From the NCBI GenBank assembly GCA_902783185.1, contig CACZPQ010000098.1, positions 1 to 47,637 of the forward strand: a stretch of 47,637 nt of DNA, written 5' to 3'. This DNA is from an uncultured Erysipelotrichaceae bacterium. Lineage in GTDB: Bacteria; Bacillota_I; Bacilli_A; RF39; UBA660. Below, piece after piece: positions 14,599 to 34,841 of this stretch. Both the position numbers and the translations under genes were made by a program. The notes beneath the pieces were generated by a model. The model was given only the letters and a program-made list of their open reading frames with translations. It was not told the origin of the DNA and searched no databases. Position 1 is the stretch's first letter. Each line of letters begins with the position of its first letter.

Positions 14599-14675
14599 TG
14601 GTAGCGGAGGAGGGACTCGAACCCCCAACATTTCGGGTATGAACCGAACTATCTAGCCAGTTGATATACCCCGCC
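14599..14675 (-). tRNA. complete 77-nt tRNA with anticodon CAU (Met, or Ile2 if lysidinylated), CCA encoded, carried inside the element
   Basis: The reverse complement folds as GGCGGGG-TA-TATC-AACTGGCTA-GATA-G-TTCGG-TTCATAC-CCGAA-ATGTT-GGGGG-TTCGAGT-CCCTC-CTCCGCT-A-CCA. The D stem is unusually AU-rich. Confidence 0.8.
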
Positions 14676-26473: not shown

Positions 26474-26493
26474 TTACTTGTATTTCGAATGTA

Positions 26494-26690
26494 TTTAAGA
26501 GGAGTATTAAAATAATTATTCAAAGAGAATTAGTGGTTGGTGGAAACTAATAATAATGTTTTAAGAAGGTTGCTTAAAGAGAAATAATCGAATATAACTC
26601 GTTACGTTATAAAGAGTATGATATAAATCATAAATTAAGGTGGTACCGCGGCTTTAGTCGTCCTTTAGTTTATGATTTTTTTATTGAGGT
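26494..26690 (+). promoter_or_regulatory. T-box riboswitch leader with a Val (GUU) specifier
   Basis: The Stem I lower helix is tttaag (26494-99) / cttaaa (26573-78). AGTA is at 26503-06, the AGAGA bulge at 26524-28 and the distal loop ggttggtggaa. The specifier loop is ...GAA-g-GTT-g (GTT at 26569-71). The T-box motif aattaaGGTGGTACCGCGg is at 26631-52. The terminator arms are aaatcataaa.. and ..tttatgattt, followed by a T-run. Confidence 0.85.
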
Positions 26691-26696
26691 GAAATT

Positions 26697-27398
26697 ATGC
26701 AAAAAGAATTAGAAATGTTTGAAAAATTTATTAATGATTATGATTTAACTATACCACAGTTAAAAGGAAAGAAAGAACATACATATAGAGTAGTTGGATA
26801 TGCTAAAGAAATTGCTAAATCTTTATTGTTATCTAACGAAGATATTAATTTAGCAGGTATATGTGCTTTATTTCATGATTTAGGTAGATTTCCACAATAC
26901 ACTCAGTATCATACATTTTATGATGATGATTCTATAGATCATGGTGATAAAAGTTACGAAATATTAAAAGAATTAAATTATAATAATGAAATAGTCTTAA
27001 AAGCAGTTAAATATCATAATAAATATAGAGTTGATGATAGTTTAAGTGAAAGAGAATTATTGTTTGCTAATATTACAAGAGATGCTGATAAAATTGATAT
27101 AATGTTAAAACAACTTGGAGATTCCTATAAAGAAGATTATAATATTTCTAATGATATAATGAATTTCTTTTATGAACAAAAACTAATTAATAATGAAACA
27201 ATAAAAAATAAAACTGATGGAAAATTAAGAACGTTAACTTTTATTTTTGATATTAATTATAAAAAGAGTTTTGAAATAATTAAGGAATCAAATATAATTG
27301 ATAAATATATTAATTTAATATATAATGCAACAAATGATGAAAAAATATTTGAAATAAGAGATATTTTAAATGAAAGGATTGATAATTATGTTAGATAG
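26697..27398 (+). CDS. HD-domain phosphohydrolase family protein
   Basis: The motif HTYRVVGYAKEIA...CALFHDLGRF...DKID is an HD-superfamily signature. Confidence 0.7.
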   Translation: MQKELEMFEKFINDYDLTIPQLKGKKEHTYRVVGYAKEIAKSLLLSNEDINLAGICALFHDLGRFPQYTQYHTFYDDDSIDHGDKSYEILKELNYNNEIVLKAVKYHNKYRVDDSLSERELLFANITRDADKIDIMLKQLGDSYKEDYNISNDIMNFFYEQKLINNETIKNKTDGKLRTLTFIFDINYKKSFEIIKESNIIDKYINLIYNATNDEKIFEIRDILNERIDNYVR

Positions 27399-29907
27399 CA
27401 AATATGATCATAAGCAAGTTGAAAAAAATAAATATAATACATGGAAAGAAAATGGATATTTTAATGCAGGAGATAAAAGTAAAAATCCATATTGTATTGT
27501 AATACCACCACCTAATGTTACTGGAAAACTACATATTGGACATGCTTATAACGTAGCAATACAAGATGCTATTATTAGATATAAAAGAATGCAAGGATTT
27601 GATACACTTTGGTTACCAGGAATGGATCATGCTGCAATTGCAACTGAAGCTAAAGTAGTTAAAAGGCTAAAAGACAAGGGCATTAATAAGTATGAATATG
27701 GTAGAGAAAAGTTTTTAGAGGCTTGTTGGGATTGGACTAAAGAATATGGTGGTACAATTCGTGATCAATGGGCTGCTATGGGAATATCAGTTGATTATAC
27801 TAGAGAAAGATTTACTCTTGATGAAGGCTTAAATAAAGCTGTTACTAAAGTATTTGTTGACTATTATAATAAAGGTTTAATATATCGTGGTGAAAAGATT
27901 ATTAACTGGGATCCAGTTGCTAAAACTGCTTTATCTAATGAAGAAGTTATTTATTCTGAAGAAAAGAGTGCTTTTTATCACTTAAAATATGTTTTGGAAG
28001 ATAGTGATGAATATTTAGATGTTGCAACAACTAGACCAGAAACGCTATTTGGTGATACAGCTGTTGCAGTTAATAAAGATGATGAAAGATATAAAAAATA
28101 TATTGGTAAAAACGTTATATTACCAATTATGAATAAAGCTATTCCTGTTATTGCTGATGAACATGCTGACATGGAAAAAGGAACAGGTGTAGTTAAAATA
28201 ACACCAGCACATGATCCTAACGATTTTGAAGTAGGTAATAGACATAATCTTGAAAGAGTATGTATCATGAACGATGATGCAACATTAAATGAAAATGTGC
28301 CAGAAAAATATCAAGGAATGACAAGAGAGGATGCTAGAGAAGAAGTTTTAAAAGATTTAAAAGAACTTGGACTTCTTTTAGATGTAGAACCACTTGTTCA
28401 TGAGGTTGGTCATTCTGAACGTACTCATGTAATGGTTGAACCAATGATTAAAGAGCAATGGTTTGTTAAAATGGATGAACTAGCTAGTAATTTATTAAAT
28501 ACTCAAAATAAAAAAGATGAAAAGGTAAATTTTGTTCCTGATAGATTTGAAAATCTATTAAAATCTTGGATGACTTCGTGTCATGATTGGTGTATTTCAA
28601 GACAACTATGGTGGGGACATAGAATTCCAGCATGGTATAAAGGTGATGAAGTATATGTTGGACTTGAAGCTCCAAAAGAGTCTGGTTGGGTTCAAGATGA
28701 AGATGTTTTAGACACATGGTTTTCATCTGCATTATGGCCATTTTCAACATTAGGTTGGCCAGATAACACTGAAGATTTAGAAAGATATTATCCAAATGAT
28801 TGTTTAGTTACTGCTTATGATATTATTTTCTTCTGGGTTGCAAGAATGATTTTCCAATCAGAAGGATTAAATAATATTAGACCATTTAAGGATTGTATTA
28901 TTCATGGTTTAATTCGTGATAAAAATGGTAGAAAAATGTCTAAATCACTAGGTAATGGTGTAGATCCATTTGATATGATTGAAAAATATGGTGTTGATGC
29001 GTTAAGATATTATTTAAATACTGATGTTTCATTTGGTACTGACCTTAGATTTGATGAAACAAAAATGTCATCAACTTGGAATTATATTAATAAAATATGG
29101 AATGCATCAAGATTTGTTTTAATGAATATTGAAGGATTAAAAGAATATACTTTTGATAATTTAACTGATGAAGATAAATGGATTCTTACTAAATATGAAA
29201 ATATAGTTAAATCAAGTATTAATCATATGGATAAATATGAATTTAATTTATTTGGTACTGAAACATATAGTTTTATTTATGATGATTTTTGTTCAAATTA
29301 TATTGAATTTGCTAAATTTAATAGTGATTCTAATACTACAAAATCAGTTTTATGTTATGTTCTAACTGGCATATTAAAAATGTTACATCCATTTATGCCA
29401 TTTGTAACTGAAGAAATATATCAAATGTTACCAATTAAAGAAACTGCATCTATTATGATATCTAAATATCCAGAATATAACAAAGATTTTGTTTATAAGA
29501 ATGAAGAAAAAATAGTTGATGATAAAATAGAATTTATTAAAACTTATAGAAATATTAAGACAGAGAATAATATTCCAAAAGATGTACAAGTGTTAATTAA
29601 TACTAATGATCAAATAATTATAAAAATGTTAAAGATTGAAAATATTATAACAAATCCAATTAATATTAAATCTTATAATGTAAAAGCAAATAATTATAAA
29701 GCAACTATTTTCTTTGAAAAACAAGAATCTATTGCAGATAAACAAATAAAAGAAACTCAAATTAAATTATTACAAGATTCTATTGCAAGACGTGAAAAAC
29801 TATTATCTAATGAACATTATGTTAATAAAGCACCAAAAAATATTGTAGATATGGATAGACAAAAATTGGAAGAAGAAAAGAAAAAATTAGAGGAATTATT
29901 AAAATAG
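27388..29907 (+). CDS. valS: valyl-tRNA synthetase
   Basis: PPPNVTGKLHIGHA (HIGH), KMSKSLGN (KMSKS) and a C-terminal coiled coil. The start was set at MLDSKYDHKQVE behind RBS aaagga and overlaps the HD gene by 11 nt. Confidence 0.95.
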   Translation: MLDSKYDHKQVEKNKYNTWKENGYFNAGDKSKNPYCIVIPPPNVTGKLHIGHAYNVAIQDAIIRYKRMQGFDTLWLPGMDHAAIATEAKVVKRLKDKGINKYEYGREKFLEACWDWTKEYGGTIRDQWAAMGISVDYTRERFTLDEGLNKAVTKVFVDYYNKGLIYRGEKIINWDPVAKTALSNEEVIYSEEKSAFYHLKYVLEDSDEYLDVATTRPETLFGDTAVAVNKDDERYKKYIGKNVILPIMNKAIPVIADEHADMEKGTGVVKITPAHDPNDFEVGNRHNLERVCIMNDDATLNENVPEKYQGMTREDAREEVLKDLKELGLLLDVEPLVHEVGHSERTHVMVEPMIKEQWFVKMDELASNLLNTQNKKDEKVNFVPDRFENLLKSWMTSCHDWCISRQLWWGHRIPAWYKGDEVYVGLEAPKESGWVQDEDVLDTWFSSALWPFSTLGWPDNTEDLERYYPNDCLVTAYDIIFFWVARMIFQSEGLNNIRPFKDCIIHGLIRDKNGRKMSKSLGNGVDPFDMIEKYGVDALRYYLNTDVSFGTDLRFDETKMSSTWNYINKIWNASRFVLMNIEGLKEYTFDNLTDEDKWILTKYENIVKSSINHMDKYEFNLFGTETYSFIYDDFCSNYIEFAKFNSDSNTTKSVLCYVLTGILKMLHPFMPFVTEEIYQMLPIKETASIMISKYPEYNKDFVYKNEEKIVDDKIEFIKTYRNIKTENNIPKDVQVLINTNDQIIIKMLKIENIITNPINIKSYNVKANNYKATIFFEKQESIADKQIKETQIKLLQDSIARREKLLSNEHYVNKAPKNIVDMDRQKLEEEKKKLEELLK

Positions 29908-31457: not shown

Positions 31458-31486
31458 AAATATAAGATATTTCTTATATTTTTTTA
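31458..31486. terminator. bidirectional terminator between rel and fem
   Basis: 10-bp stem aaatataaga/tcttatattt with a 4-nt loop, with A-runs and T-runs on both sides. Confidence 0.6.
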
Positions 31487-32760
31487 CTTTTTATAAAATA
31501 ATATATTTTTATTGCAACATTGTATATAAAGTAAGCAAATTTATCTATAACTAAATCAAATTCACCAATTAATTCTACAACTTTACCACCAAAGTCTCTT
31601 TTAAACGAATATAAACCAAATAATGGATTATTTTCATCAAATATACCTGATATACCATAAAAATTATATCTATCATAATTATTTTCTATAGCGTATTTTA
31701 ATCCTGCCCAATGTAGAGTATATGCTGATTGAAATTCCATAAATTCATCATATGAACCACCAACTGAAGATAATACTTCATTTTTACTTAAATAAAATAG
31801 TATTCCTCCTAATGTAATAATTTCACCATGTTTTTCTTTTAACTCTTCTAAGTGATTAATATTTTTTTCTAATCTTTTAATTTCATTTCTTGAAGTTTCT
31901 TGTTTTTGATCAAACTTTTTCTTATTTACTTTAGTTGGATCTTCATTATATTGTTTTTCTCTTAAATTAATTTCTTCGTTTAGTTTATTTATTTCATCTT
32001 TATATTCATTTATTGATGTATTAGTATCAAGTTCTGCAAGTAGTATTTTTATAAAGCCATTTTTATCCATTTCTTTAAACATTTTTTGATAGTAGGATAG
32101 TGGTCTATCTAAAAAACCTCTTCTTTTAGCAGTATGCTCTGATATAGCTTTAAATTTATCTAATTCATCATATTTTATTTCTCTAACTTTAATTTTATTT
32201 CTTTCATTTTTTCTTAAGATTTGTCTAGTTTTAGGATCCATCCCTTTCATTACTTCTTCAACTGTTGTATTTTTAGTTGGAGTAATAAATATCCATCTTG
32301 GTTGTACTTCTTCACCAGCAACATTAAATCCCATATGCTTATACTTTAAATTAATTAAATTATTGTAGGCATTTTTATTATTTTTTCCATTTTCTACTAT
32401 ATTTCCATGTAAATCTCTTTCTTGATAAGAAATATAAGGATCTATTTTTATAAATATAGCTTTATTCTTTTTAGCCCAAATTTTTAATTCTTTAGTAAAG
32501 AATGTTAATAATTCAACATTATCATAATCAATTAAAAAGCCACGTGGTGCATAAAACATCTTTTTACCAATAGGTGTTTTTTTAGCAAGTATTAAAGAGG
32601 CAGCAATTACTTTATTGTTTTCTTTAACTCCAACTAAATAACTTTCCCAACCAGTCATTGCTTTTAAATTTCCCCAGTTAACTGTTTGGTGAAAAGATGC
32701 TTGTTCATGATTTGTTGCAAAGTCCATAAATTCTTTTTCATTTAATATTTCAAATTTCAT
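31474..32760 (-). CDS. FemAB-family peptidoglycan interpeptide-bridge aminoacyltransferase (tRNA-dependent)
   Basis: N-terminal ...SFHQTVNWGNLK..., a central coiled-coil insertion and C-terminal ...YNFYGISG...GLYSFKRDFGG. Confidence 0.8.
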   Translation of the reverse strand: MKFEILNEKEFMDFATNHEQASFHQTVNWGNLKAMTGWESYLVGVKENNKVIAASLILAKKTPIGKKMFYAPRGFLIDYDNVELLTFFTKELKIWAKKNKAIFIKIDPYISYQERDLHGNIVENGKNNKNAYNNLINLKYKHMGFNVAGEEVQPRWIFITPTKNTTVEEVMKGMDPKTRQILRKNERNKIKVREIKYDELDKFKAISEHTAKRRGFLDRPLSYYQKMFKEMDKNGFIKILLAELDTNTSINEYKDEINKLNEEINLREKQYNEDPTKVNKKKFDQKQETSRNEIKRLEKNINHLEELKEKHGEIITLGGILFYLSKNEVLSSVGGSYDEFMEFQSAYTLHWAGLKYAIENNYDRYNFYGISGIFDENNPLFGLYSFKRDFGGKVVELIGEFDLVIDKFAYFIYNVAIKIYYFIKSKKI

Positions 32761-32882
32761 ATAATCATTTCCTTACTTATTAATTATAACTTTAATTAAA
32801 TAAAAAAGAAAGATTTTTATAGACAAATATGTATATTAAATGCTAATATAAACATTAAATCTAAAACTAGCAGGAGGTTTAA

Positions 32883-33389
32883 ATGCAAAATAAAAAGAAT
32901 AATTATATTGATGTAACAAAAAAGTGGATTAGTAATGCTAATCCTAATTCTCATGAAATAAAAGAATTAGATTATTGGATTATTAATAATAAAAAGAAGA
33001 AAGTAGATGGTAAGAACATACTTTTAGATTATAGTAAAAGTGAATTAGAATGTGCCAAGTGGTTAGAATCTACTTTTGGCGGAGAAATATTTATGTGTCC
33101 AAGAGTTAATATACCTGAAGGAATAAAAACACCTGACTTTATTTGGAATGGAGAATATTGGGATTTGAAAGAAATAAAAGGAAACGCTAGTAAAACATTA
33201 GATACTGCATTAAAAAATGCAAAAAATCAATCACCAAATTTTATTATAGATATAACAAAATCAAATATAAATATTAATAAGATAATTAGCCAAATTAAAA
33301 AAATATCCTTAAATAAGGATAGATTCTGGATCAAAAAAATTATTATAAAAAAATATGATAAAATTATTATTATATTAAAAAGAGATTGA
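32883..33389 (+). CDS. standalone PD-(D/E)xK (restriction-endonuclease-fold) toxin-like protein
   Basis: The motif E-x3-AKWLESTFGGEI...IKTPDFIWNGEYWDLKEIKG gives an E...PD...D-x-K arrangement. It resembles the C-terminal nuclease/tRNase modules of polymorphic toxins. No delivery domain and no adjacent immunity ORF are present. Confidence 0.45.
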   Translation: MQNKKNNYIDVTKKWISNANPNSHEIKELDYWIINNKKKKVDGKNILLDYSKSELECAKWLESTFGGEIFMCPRVNIPEGIKTPDFIWNGEYWDLKEIKGNASKTLDTALKNAKNQSPNFIIDITKSNININKIISQIKKISLNKDRFWIKKIIIKKYDKIIIILKRD

Positions 33390-33426
33390 CCACCAGTCCC
33401 CATAACGGACCAAGACCAATCTCATT
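33377..33426 (-). ncRNA. candidate ~50-nt sRNA 1 (promoter + GU-rich hairpin terminator), antisense to the stop codon of ORF 32883..33389
   Basis: On the minus strand: TTGACA (33461-33456), 17-nt spacer, TATATT (33438-33433). A 42-nt hairpin (33423-33382) with 17 bp and one bulge follows, then U5 (33381-33377). Confidence 0.5.
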
Positions 33427-33496
33427 ACATATAATATACTATTATTTATAAAATATGTCAATTAATTATTATATTTATTATAATTATTGTAATACT

Positions 33497-33542
33497 AAAA
33501 AGAGGCTGACCCTCGTTCCAATGAACGGGGACCAACCTCATT
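33497..33542 (-). ncRNA. candidate ~46-nt sRNA 2 (second copy of a 118-bp tandem unit)
   Basis: On the minus strand: TTGACA (33577-33572), 17-nt spacer, TATATT (33554-33549). A 38-nt hairpin (33539-33502) follows with 16 of 17 positions paired, three of them G-U, then U5 (33501-33497). Confidence 0.5.
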
Positions 33543-33632
33543 AAATTTAATATACAATAATAATTAAATTATGTCAATTAATTAATAATAACAATAATGT
33601 ATATTATATAAAATAAAAATAATACTAATAAT

Positions 33633-34841
33633 ATGAATATAAATGAATTAAAATTTTCAATATTGTGTGATGATGAATATGATAAATTTGCTAAGTCTCA
33701 TCCATTAAATAATTTTTTTCAAAGTATATATATGAAAGATTTACTCATTTCTTTAAATAGAAGTGTTTATTTAGTTGGATTAAAAGATCATAATAAAAAT
33801 ATTATATGTGCTACATTACTAACTAATACTAGTTCTTTTTTTAAACATTATACTTATGAAGCGTTAAAAGGTTATTTAATAGATTATAGTAATTCTAAAT
33901 TAGTTAGTTATTTTACTAATGAAATAATAAAATTTATTAAGCTATTAAATGGATATAGATTAATAATAGATCCATATATTATAAAAAAACAGAGAGATAT
34001 TAATGGCAATTATATAAAAAATGGAATAGATAATACTTATGTTATTAATTATTTATATGATTTAGGTTTTAAAGAAATAAAGAATAATCAGGTAAAATTA
34101 ACTTTTGTACTTAATACTAATAAAGATTTTAATAAATTATTTAATGAAATGAAACCTAATACTAGAAATATAATTAATAAAACTATTAATAAATATAAAT
34201 TAATTGTTGAAGAATTACCATATGAAAAATTATATTTATTTAAGAGAATTACTGAAGAAACTTGCTCAAGAAGAAACTTTCATGATAGAAATTTATCATA
34301 TTATCAAAATATGTATAAATCTTTTAAAGATAATATTAAAGTATTAATATGTAAATTAGATTTAAAACTATATCTAAATGAATTAATAAATGAAAAGGAA
34401 TCTATTAATAATAAATTAAATACAAATAACGAAAAAAAGAAAAATACTTTAAGAAAAGAATTATTAAATATTAATAAAAAGATTAAAGAAATAGAAAATT
34501 TAAAAAAAGATAATGATTATCTAATATTATCTGGGGCTATGTTTATAACATATGGAAGTGAAGTAGTATATTTATTTAGTGGGTCATATGAAAAATATAT
34601 GAAATTTAATGGGCAATACCGTTTGCAATATGAAATGATTAAATATGCTTGTTTAAATAAATTTAAAAGATATAATTTTTATGGTATTAAAAGCTGTGAT
34701 GATAATGATGGAATCTATGAGTTTAAAAAAGGATTTAATGGTTATGTTGAAGAACTCTTAGGAGCATATGAAATAGGTATAAGTTTTCCTTATAAAGTAT
34801 ATAAATTATTAAGTAACTTAAAAAAAATATTTAAAAAATAA
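33633..34841 (+). CDS. FemAB-family aminoacyltransferase paralog
   Basis: Same architecture as 31474..32760 (FFQSIYMKDLL, a central coiled coil, YNFYGIK...YEFKKGFNG), but divergent and more AT-rich. Confidence 0.75.
   Translation: MNINELKFSILCDDEYDKFAKSHPLNNFFQSIYMKDLLISLNRSVYLVGLKDHNKNIICATLLTNTSSFFKHYTYEALKGYLIDYSNSKLVSYFTNEIIKFIKLLNGYRLIIDPYIIKKQRDINGNYIKNGIDNTYVINYLYDLGFKEIKNNQVKLTFVLNTNKDFNKLFNEMKPNTRNIINKTINKYKLIVEELPYEKLYLFKRITEETCSRRNFHDRNLSYYQNMYKSFKDNIKVLICKLDLKLYLNELINEKESINNKLNTNNEKKKNTLRKELLNINKKIKEIENLKKDNDYLILSGAMFITYGSEVVYLFSGSYEKYMKFNGQYRLQYEMIKYACLNKFKRYNFYGIKSCDDNDGIYEFKKGFNGYVEELLGAYEIGISFPYKVYKLLSNLKKIFKK

Follow-up and report, generated by a model that had tools for sequence, protein, structure and literature searches.

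A convergent hairpin RNA gene at the end of a nuclease-family toxin gene: a candidate toxin/RNA-antitoxin module in gut Bacilli, gut phages and Streptococcus prophages

It is assumed that polymorphic toxins, the phage-borne MuF versions included, are held in check by small immunity proteins, and that type I RNA antitoxins have small membrane peptides as their targets. A 47,637-nucleotide (nt) stretch of DNA from an uncultured Erysipelotrichaceae bacterium (contig CACZPQ010000098.1 of assembly GCA_902783185.1; this whole stretch is referred to as the window) raises the question of what controls a nuclease-family toxin gene, at 32883-33389, which is followed by two tiny convergent RNA genes. Our finding is that a branch of a well-studied tRNase toxin family is paired, almost without exception, with a gene for a ~50-70-nt hairpin RNA and with no conserved protein. 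Since the same pairing is seen again in gut bacteria, in gut phages and in Streptococcus prophages, without a shared immunity protein, the hairpin RNA is probably the antidote of the toxin. We favour the reading that the locus is a toxin/RNA-antitoxin module whose small RNA (sRNA) acts as a cis-antisense RNA, and assign to it a probability of roughly 0.5.

The toxin gene and its two RNA units

The module in the window comprises the following elements:

32883-33389, plus strand: stand-alone 168-residue CdiA_C-domain protein, a putative tRNase toxin of the PD-(D/E)XK type (Pfam, fold match, conserved residues).
32820-32849, plus strand: putative toxin promoter, TAGACA, 18 nt, TAATAT, with an upstream TG (promoter scan; conserved in the close relatives L001 and L002).
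32872-32877, plus strand: strong Shine-Dalgarno sequence AGGAGG, 5 nt ahead of the toxin ATG (sequence; conserved in relatives).
33433-33461, minus strand: promoter of sRNA unit 1, TTGACA at 33461-33456, 17 nt, TATATT at 33438-33433 (promoter scan; the same promoter in the same place in relatives).
33377-33426, minus strand: predicted sRNA 1, ~50 nt, with hairpin 33423-33382 and U-run 33381-33377 (folds; covariance model, 71.9 bits).
33549-33577, minus strand: promoter of sRNA unit 2, TTGACA at 33577-33572, 17 nt, TATATT at 33554-33549 (promoter scan).
33497-33542, minus strand: predicted sRNA 2, ~46 nt, a solo unit, with hairpin 33539-33502 and U-run 33501-33497 (folds; covariance model, 64.6 bits).
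33479-33509, plus strand: remnant of a toxin gene 3' end (...aaaaagaggctga) within unit 2 (direct repeat, 72% identical to 33359-33408).

Judged by its sequence, the open reading frame (ORF) 32883-33389 is a clear member of the family CdiA_C (PF18451), which is the family of the CdiA-CT toxin of Burkholderia pseudomallei 1026b and of SitA3 (PMC9990079): residues 82-161 match profile positions 1-81 of 81 at 67.6 bits, the cut-off being 26.6 (E=1.1e-18). For the AlphaFold2 model of the protein (pLDDT 92), the sole Foldseek match in the PDB at E<1e-3 is 4g6v_A (E=1.7e-4, probability 1.00, TM 0.45/0.55), i.e. the CdiA-CT toxin of strain 1026b, and the same chain comes top in a profile search of PDB sequences (E=0.01). 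The acidic and lysine residues of the PD-(D/E)XK type are present (D85, L95 and K96, invariant among 31 relatives, and D94, nearly so), and Q116 and N119 are likewise invariant. The first-pass annotation, a model's reading of the bare sequence, had called the gene a toxin-like nuclease, and the domain assignment bears this out; the product is presumably a stand-alone PD-(D/E)XK nuclease of the CdiA-CT(1026b) type, that is, a tRNase, the toxin of 1026b being known to cut the acceptor stem of tRNA-Ala (PMC9086364). Its predicted promoter appears moderate, and weaker than those of the sRNA units.

These two units lie in tandem on the minus strand at 33359-33587. They form a direct repeat, as the first-pass annotation had recognised, though its spacing is 116-120 nt and not a strict 118, and the copies are 83% identical in the promoter/leader part and 72% in the gene-end/hairpin part. 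The promoter that it had singled out, TTGACA-17-TATATT, is matched only twice in the window, by the two sRNA promoters (chance expectation 0.04), which also rank best in a local promoter scan (11/12 each). As it had further described, a long hairpin and a U-run follow each -10 box: the hairpin starts 9 nt on in both units, and TTTTT comes after it. Folded as minus-strand RNA, hairpins 1 and 2 reach -18.8 kcal/mol (z = -3.6) and -24.2 kcal/mol (z = -4.8), as against -12.1 and -19.3 kcal/mol for the plus-strand versions, in agreement with the claim that the structure is strand-specific. Hairpin 1 has the 17 pairs and single bulge ascribed to it, with five G·U pairs rather than six; for hairpin 2, the register initially proposed (16 of 17 positions paired, three G·U) is equivalent to that of minimum energy, which has 16 pairs, a 1-nt bulge and two G·U.

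Inside hairpin 1 lie the last 8 nt of the toxin ORF (33382-33389), which comprise the TGA stop and most, rather than all, of the final two codons. Unit 2 overlaps no ORF, just the gene-end remnant, which had correctly been spotted in the second copy. The start sites of the window RNAs can be predicted from the mapped start of a counterpart with the same layout in a Streptococcus prophage (see below): transcription should begin ~7 nt past the -10 box and yield RNAs of ~50 and ~46 nt with ~3 unpaired nt at the 5' end. The 244-nt gap between the toxin gene and the next gene contains nothing but the two RNA units, and three other contigs with the same toxin gene hold both units with identical covariance-model scores. 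ENA assemblies ERZ1024285, ERZ28614175 and ERZ919118 also contain this locus. A coding function of the minus-strand RNA was considered and rejected, the short ATG-initiated frames being unconserved (L005, one of the relatives, has no ATG) and, on inspection, devoid of a ribosome-binding site. Within the 5' part of the toxin ORF, at 32926-32944 on the minus strand, there is a terminator-like hairpin with a T-run, the sole such site in a 2-kb scan, which could halt antisense read-through from the sRNA promoters.

Linkage, structure and transcription across the family

Is the pairing of toxin gene and RNA unit peculiar to this contig? We collected 85 homologues of the window toxin, mostly stand-alone proteins of 160-200 residues from gut metagenomes, with relatives labelled as 'Bacilli bacterium' metagenome-assembled genomes (MAGs) from rabbit, deer and human gut, and added 160 further loci from metagenome and IMG/VR collections, in many of which the toxin is the C-terminal domain of a phage MuF-type head protein of 520-735 residues. 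An antisense hairpin with a T-run is found at the end of the toxin domain in 166 of 173 toxin genes or, since many of the loci are near-identical phages, in 75 of 81 when counted without redundancy. At 50 of these 81 loci, moreover, a sigma-70 promoter with a score of 10/12 or more lies no further than 32 nt away, and most of the remaining loci have an extended -10 box of the TGnTATAAT kind. Among 372 control ORFs, listed mechanically from the same DNA, a hairpin with a T-run occurs at 20% and a hairpin with a promoter at 1.3%. The proposal of autonomous minus-strand sRNA genes tied to the toxin-like ORF is upheld. One 205-residue homologue (P0074) has precomputed Pfam matches to both CdiA_C and GNAT acetyltransferase families, which may reflect an unusual fusion or an assembly artefact of its 707-bp contig.

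Seven distinct contexts were compared, and in all of them a convergent promoter-hairpin-T-run unit stands at the toxin stop while the neighbours are all different (PriA/sigma/CotZ; UvrB; HIGH_NTase with a helix-turn-helix (HTH) gene; TK/GlyRS; two unannotated genes; GerA/Bro; GyrA/HTH). Over the loci as a whole the adjacent genes likewise vary, from FemAB, UvrB, CotZ, GlyRS and GerA to phage scaffold genes, and the toxin domain is the only partner common to chromosomal and phage contexts.

The converse searches, which start from the RNA, lead to the same genes. A degenerate pattern for the hairpins of class A, matched against the GTDB representatives (one genome per species), gave 23 matches, 16 of which are chance matches without a hairpin in unrelated phyla; the seven real hairpins are all from MAGs of the 'Bacilli bacterium' type, and of these four are at the 3' end of a toxin gene, two immediately precede such a gene and one stands beside a toxin remnant. 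For two other hairpin types, patterns derived from the inner, non-coding portion of the hairpin yielded 34 matches in IMG/VR: 32 of them lie next to a toxin domain in convergent orientation, another is at a contig edge, and the last is an orphan; the pattern for the hairpin type T3 had no exact match there. In the window, the class-A covariance model (whose E-values are rough) finds the two units only, the next best hit scoring 18.9 bits, and on 100 related loci it returns only units at toxin ends or extra tandem units behind them. As searches that begin with the RNA return toxin loci almost exclusively, the element is no generic repeat, an alternative which the first-pass annotation had itself put forward as a test of its proposal. 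A dispersed intergenic repeat of the REP or MITE kind was rejected on the same grounds: there are two copies in 47.6 kb, and the real genome matches as well as 32 of the 33 assessable IMG/VR matches are at toxin genes.

The search for a conserved protein partner was negative: the downstream ORFs across all loci fall into 123 clusters with no shared family, those sampled match only YjcQ, DUF6275 or Bro-N, or no family at all, and none matches an immunity family, and around the toxin genes of the window, L002 and L006 the spacers are too small for another gene. It is nonetheless possible that some phage loci contain diverse protein immunity genes. An HTH protein of the XRE type was discarded as a conserved partner, being found beside the units of one MAG only. 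Nor does the RNA match a family in Rfam 15: scans of the whole window at gathering scores, of the region at E<=10 and of 16 related loci assigned it to none; the suggestion of a novel small-RNA family is consistent with this result. The best Rfam match, SpF03, was rejected (22 bits, with the threshold at 50; E=0.57), and it was not reproduced on the streptococcal loci.

In a model-guided alignment of 37 distinct hairpin sequences, 90% of the cells are paired and 12 of the 17 pairs have changed on both sides. The covariation score of 0.388, obtained from an alignment which is fitted to the model and hence biased toward the structure, compares with 0.236±0.014 for shuffles (none of 500 reaches it) and with at most 0.116 for slid controls. 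The comparison of sequences thus indicates that the structure of the hairpin RNA is under selection. One U·G pair, next to a G·U, is retained in 36 of the 37 sequences. Of 52 unique hairpins, drawn from all types, 51 fold more stably as antisense than as sense RNA (mean -21.9 versus -13.7 kcal/mol), with 3.6 G·U pairs per hairpin in the antisense fold and 0.4 in the sense fold; our detector, which applies fixed thresholds to the antisense strand, inflates this asymmetry somewhat, but not to the extent of a nine-fold excess of G·U. A T-run on the sense side is absent from 42 of 56 unique hairpins. Taken together with the strand asymmetry, this identifies the hairpin as a one-way terminator for the sRNA, through which transcription of the toxin gene, or of a phage late operon, should pass.

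The hairpins fall into about eight sequence types, several of which contain the submotif 5'-UGGUC/GGUCA-3'. Their type is only loosely tied to the toxin sequence: toxins that are 70-75% identical may have different types, and one type spans toxins that are 40% identical. Strict co-variation of hairpin type and toxin was therefore of no use as a test for direct binding, the loose correlation failing to discriminate between the models. In every sequence type, the hairpin overlaps or abuts the stop codon of the toxin gene, which fits a cis-acting role.

Is such an RNA made? The branch of the family considered here comprises gut Bacilli, gut phages and prophages of S. pyogenes, S. equi, S. agalactiae and S. 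suis; we found the toxin domain in 41 Streptococcus prophages, among them prophage 315.6 of S. pyogenes, whose SpyM3_1433 consists of Phage_Mu_F and CdiA_C, and the convergent promoter-hairpin-T-run is present in Streptococcus prophages as well. For S. pyogenes S119, differential RNA sequencing has located a primary start site at 1445566(+) (Rosinski-Chupin et al. 2019, PMC6431027), and the 51 nt upstream of it are identical to the promoter that we predict in prophage Javan513 of strain MGAS5005 (TTGATA-17-TATAAT), the two strains being 65 single-nucleotide polymorphisms apart (PMC6431027). The transcript, SP119_SR103, is a 70-nt non-coding RNA (1445566-1445636) with a predicted rho-independent terminator (PMC6431027). 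Its 3' end lies 14 nt inside the MuF-CdiA_C gene SP119_1434, of which the terminator hairpin covers the last 14 nt. SP119_SR103 is expressed, while the late operon stays below 3 reads per kilobase per million (PMC6431027, Tables S2, S5 and S6); it was listed as an antisense non-coding RNA, with neither a function nor a link to the toxin domain assigned to it (PMC6431027). Architecture and partner-gene family are those of the window units. The streptococcal hairpin, however, is of a different sequence type, longer and interrupted by internal loops, and the class-A covariance model finds no match in the streptococcal prophages; what connects the window units with SP119_SR103 is therefore that they have toxin domain, position and architecture in common, and not homology between the RNA sequences.

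Just beyond the sRNA promoter of prophage 315.6 there is a short gene, SpyM3_1432 (L197 3082-3196, plus strand), for a strongly hydrophobic peptide of ~38 residues (MFIWQMVLVALGVLVLILIVGIAAIAVK...) with a strong ribosome-binding site, which the -35 box of the sRNA promoter overlaps on the opposite strand; this ORF is not conserved at the other loci of the family.

Candidate modes of action

How might a hairpin RNA hold such a toxin in check? The anatomy of the units, their linkage to the toxin genes throughout the family, the covariation of the stems and the transcription of a streptococcal counterpart are established. From these we infer that the protein is toxic, that the RNA neutralises it and that it does so by an antisense mechanism. 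The putative nuclease would be made from its own moderate promoter, and the two convergent tiny genes would each give rise, from consensus promoters, to a ~50-nt hairpin RNA ending in its own U-run terminator. The G·U-rich hairpin would be strong, and would act as a terminator, on the antisense strand only, its sense counterpart having A·C mismatches and no U-run; transcription of the toxin gene would thus read through the hairpin and acquire a 3' end which is fully complementary to the sRNA(s). By pairing with the stop-codon/3' region of the toxin mRNA, the abundant sRNA might then cause decay or block productive translation, and so keep the toxin off in the way of 3'-overlapping type I antitoxins and of the lambda OOP RNA. 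Unit 2 would be a solo copy retained from a second module. What makes us favour cis-antisense action is the position at the stop codon, the loose tie between hairpin and toxin, and the precedents provided by the 3'-overlapping type I antitoxins and by OOP.

Several points weigh against it, though. (i) The overlap with the ORF is just 8 nt in the window, and a longer duplex would depend on a putative 3' untranslated region (UTR) of the toxin mRNA, pairing at the 3' end requiring that this mRNA reads through. (ii) The predicted RNAs are near-bare, very stable hairpins with loops of 3-7 nt and hardly any unpaired 5' end, and would hence be kinetically poor antisense RNAs. (iii) Solo units, units upstream of the toxin gene and arrays of 4-5 hairpins are left unexplained by a purely cis-antisense role. 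(iv) In phages the partner is an essential head protein (MuF) encoded in the middle of the late operon, silencing of which would be costly, and an antisense RNA cannot confer protection from a toxin that is delivered as protein. (v) The near-invariant U·G pair could be a feature for recognition by a protein. (vi) No complementarity of the sRNAs to the 5' region of the toxin gene was found, and pairing in trans with the toxin 5' UTR or ribosome-binding site is no better than in shuffled controls. (vii) The toxicity of the 168-residue protein is itself a prediction.

The extra units call for closer description. Like window unit 2, tandem extra units occur at L018, L046, L048, L050, L062 and L108. 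At L046 (1840-2340, minus strand) and L048 (2940-3340, minus strand), 4-5 different hairpin units stand in tandem behind one toxin gene, and some of them have their own promoter yet no T-run of their own, such that two or three of the hairpins may be co-transcribed; L016 combines three units with one toxin gene and one toxin fragment. Intact units are located upstream of the toxin gene at L025 and L023, and an orphan promoter-hairpin-T-run unit of type T7 (L204 7797-7905, plus strand) is flanked by a small ORF (MKYRKKPVVIEA...) and the scaffold gene of a phage whose 591-residue MuF protein has a different C-terminal domain. These solo units, and window unit 2 likewise, remain intact, their promoters being perfect and their stems compensated. 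Tandem toxin cassettes, each with its own hairpin type (T3 and then T2 in L037), are present together with toxin fragments at L037, L039 and L016, a pattern that resembles the orphan toxin/immunity cassettes of polymorphic toxin loci.

The first-pass annotation missed that the module is a branch of the MuF polymorphic-toxin world of phages, with multi-hairpin arrays and orphan units besides, and it is this which opens a second mechanism, namely direct RNA immunity against the protein. We regard it as a serious rival, though at well short of even odds: the gene pair would be the same, but the hairpin RNA would bind the tRNase directly as a pseudo-substrate or inhibitor, akin to a type III antitoxin, and by mimicry of the RNA substrate provide protein-level immunity to MuF-fused or stand-alone CdiA-CT tRNases. 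Arrays and solo units, the latter intact as described, would then constitute orphan-immunity repertoires that protect lysogens and bystanders from toxin injected with the MuF proteins of related phages, and array hairpins without a terminator of their own are in keeping with such a role. It is further supported by the fact that the toxin family cuts structured RNA, a tRNA acceptor stem in the case of 1026b (PMC9086364), and that the sRNA is a helix with a 3' tail and with the conserved U·G and adjacent G·U; consensus promoters, moreover, imply a high copy number of the RNA. The phage toxin is fused to an essential head protein which is packaged, and following the logic of PMC5576092 only neutralisation at the protein level would protect both producer and recipient; an immunity protein conserved across the loci was, as stated, not found. 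On the other hand, no PD-(D/E)XK nuclease is known to be inhibited by RNA, the hairpin type does not follow the toxin sequence closely, a ligand acting on the protein in trans has no need of the strict position at the stop codon, and unrecognised protein immunity genes of diverse kinds may be present in phage loci.

It appears unlikely that the units are no antitoxins at all but insulators or regulatory transcription units, in which a strong outward promoter with an immediate one-way terminator tunes or blocks read-through between cassette and neighbour, or regulates the downstream gene, the toxin being harmless to the host or controlled otherwise. Indeed, a unit has little beyond promoter and terminator, the hairpins which lack a sense T-run (42 of 56) are one-way terminators, and in the published annotation the S. 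pyogenes RNA is antisense to the 5' UTR of the following gene too (PMC6431027). A palindrome, TGTAATTACA, just past the -10 box in 9 of 75 unique units, with one further near variant, suggests regulated transcription of the sRNA and could be an operator. Such a role would, however, leave unexplained why the toxin domain is the sole partner shared by chromosomal and phage contexts, why stem covariation is well above chance, and how an intact catalytic nuclease is tolerated with no other neutraliser. The leaders with the palindrome are those of L005, L006, L034, L035, L037, L047, L115, L116 and L123, the variant with one mismatch (GTAAATAC) is that of L008, and the palindrome is absent from the window; the XRE-type HTH genes mentioned above lie directly upstream of the units in L005 and L010, both from one MAG.

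Finally, an element acting as DNA, be it a dispersed repeat (REP/MITE) or an attC-like recombination site at the cassette boundary with its hairpin in single-stranded DNA, is very improbable: an imperfect inverted repeat of conserved structure and variable sequence does stand at the 3' end of a mobile-looking cassette, and tandem modules and gene-end remnants show that recombination occurs there, but there are just two copies in 47.6 kb, no copy turned up outside toxin loci, a DNA site needs neither a fixed -35/-10 spacing nor an oriented U-run, the G·U pairs, 3.6 per hairpin, would become G·T mismatches in DNA, and the counterpart is transcribed as a discrete 70-nt RNA.

Relation to known systems and local setting

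In the type I systems txpA/RatA and bsrG/SR4 of Bacillus subtilis, the antitoxin RNA overlaps the 3' end of the toxin gene by 75-120 nt. The module described here shares with them the convergent RNA gene with its own strong promoter and terminator, the 3' overlap, the weaker toxin promoter and the occurrence of modules in mobile or prophage-like DNA. It differs in that the toxin is a soluble PD-(D/E)XK domain of 168 residues instead of a hydrophobic peptide of <60 residues, and in that the RNA, ~50 nt long, has one hairpin and an ORF overlap of 8 nt, control by base pairing being putative in the present case. With regard to type I systems in general, a separate antisense RNA gene overlapping the toxin end can be recognised in the sequence, and the ends of the counterpart are mapped in S. 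pyogenes, but the toxin is not the small (usually <60 residues) hydrophobic peptide that is typical of the class, to which SymE and RalR are known exceptions.

SymE/SymR and RalR/RalA are type I systems with nuclease toxins, in which the antitoxin pairs with the 5' or coding part of the mRNA. They thus likewise combine a protein nuclease with an RNA antitoxin, and RalR/RalA, which is cited in PMC5576092, is prophage-borne. The toxin folds are unrelated, though, the RNA is at the 3' end in our case, and SymE/SymR and RalR/RalA are without a link to polymorphic toxins. The claim that the pairing is undescribed must accordingly be narrowed: the principle of an RNA antitoxin directed at a protein nuclease has precedents, whereas no published description of an RNA partner for CdiA_C/MuF toxins was found, which, with incomplete coverage of the literature, is absence of evidence only.

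Lambda OOP is an RNA of ~70-77 nt with its own promoter and terminator which is complementary to the 3' end of cII and acts via RNase III. Common to both is a small RNA convergent with the 3' end of a gene, which can be expressed while neighbouring phage genes are silent; the target of OOP, however, is a regulator and not a toxin, and there is no homology. The type III systems (ToxIN, CptIN, TenpIN) offer a different parallel, in that a structured RNA may neutralise an endoribonuclease and in that the units are in tandem (two in the window, up to five in L046). In type III, the repeats are near-identical, precede the toxin gene on its own strand and are processed by a toxin of the ToxN fold, whereas the present units are downstream and convergent, have their own promoters, are diverse (72% alike in their hairpin parts in the window) and accompany a PD-(D/E)XK toxin rather than ToxN/AbiQ. 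The module hence lacks both anatomical hallmarks of type III.

The toxin domain itself is that of the MuF toxins (cd13442) and of CdiA-CT/CdiI of 1026b (Pfam CdiA_C; 4G6V fold match), and a good number of the relatives of the window ORF form the C-terminal domain of a MuF head protein in temperate phages of Firmicutes, prophage 315.6 included. In published models, immunity is expected to come from a small protein encoded downstream: Jamet et al., who described MuF toxins that have this domain, took the small downstream ORFs for immunity genes and did not mention RNA (PMC5576092). Here, by contrast, the hairpin RNA gene is the sole conserved neighbour. If the RNA is the antidote, a class of toxins with a nuclease domain would be added to the RNA-controlled toxin systems, the MuF toxins that seemed to lack immunity would be explained, and an orphan prophage sRNA of S. 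pyogenes transcriptomes would gain a function. Were direct inhibition true, the hairpin RNA would provide polymorphic toxin systems with their first RNA immunity partner, and the nuclease would be a new toxin fold for direct neutralisation by RNA. As cultured and tractable streptococci carry the module, both the antisense and the direct-inhibition model can be tested.

Unlike the MuF-borne copies, the toxin in the window is a stand-alone cassette between housekeeping genes and outside any prophage: it comprises 168 residues with its own ribosome-binding site and no MuF delivery domain, and the module sits between two divergent FemAB paralogues (31474-32760, minus strand; 33633-34841, plus strand), with relA/spoT-like and lemA genes close by. 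In the related contig L194 (2751-3949), the right-hand FemAB gene is split into ORFs of 234 and 176 residues. Elsewhere in the window, a T-box leader (26488-26668, plus strand; 107 bits) precedes the ORFs 26697-27398 and 27370-29907, and a tRNA-Met gene (14599-14675, minus strand) has a consensus TTGACA-18-TATAAT promoter ahead of it on the same strand, at 14831-14802.

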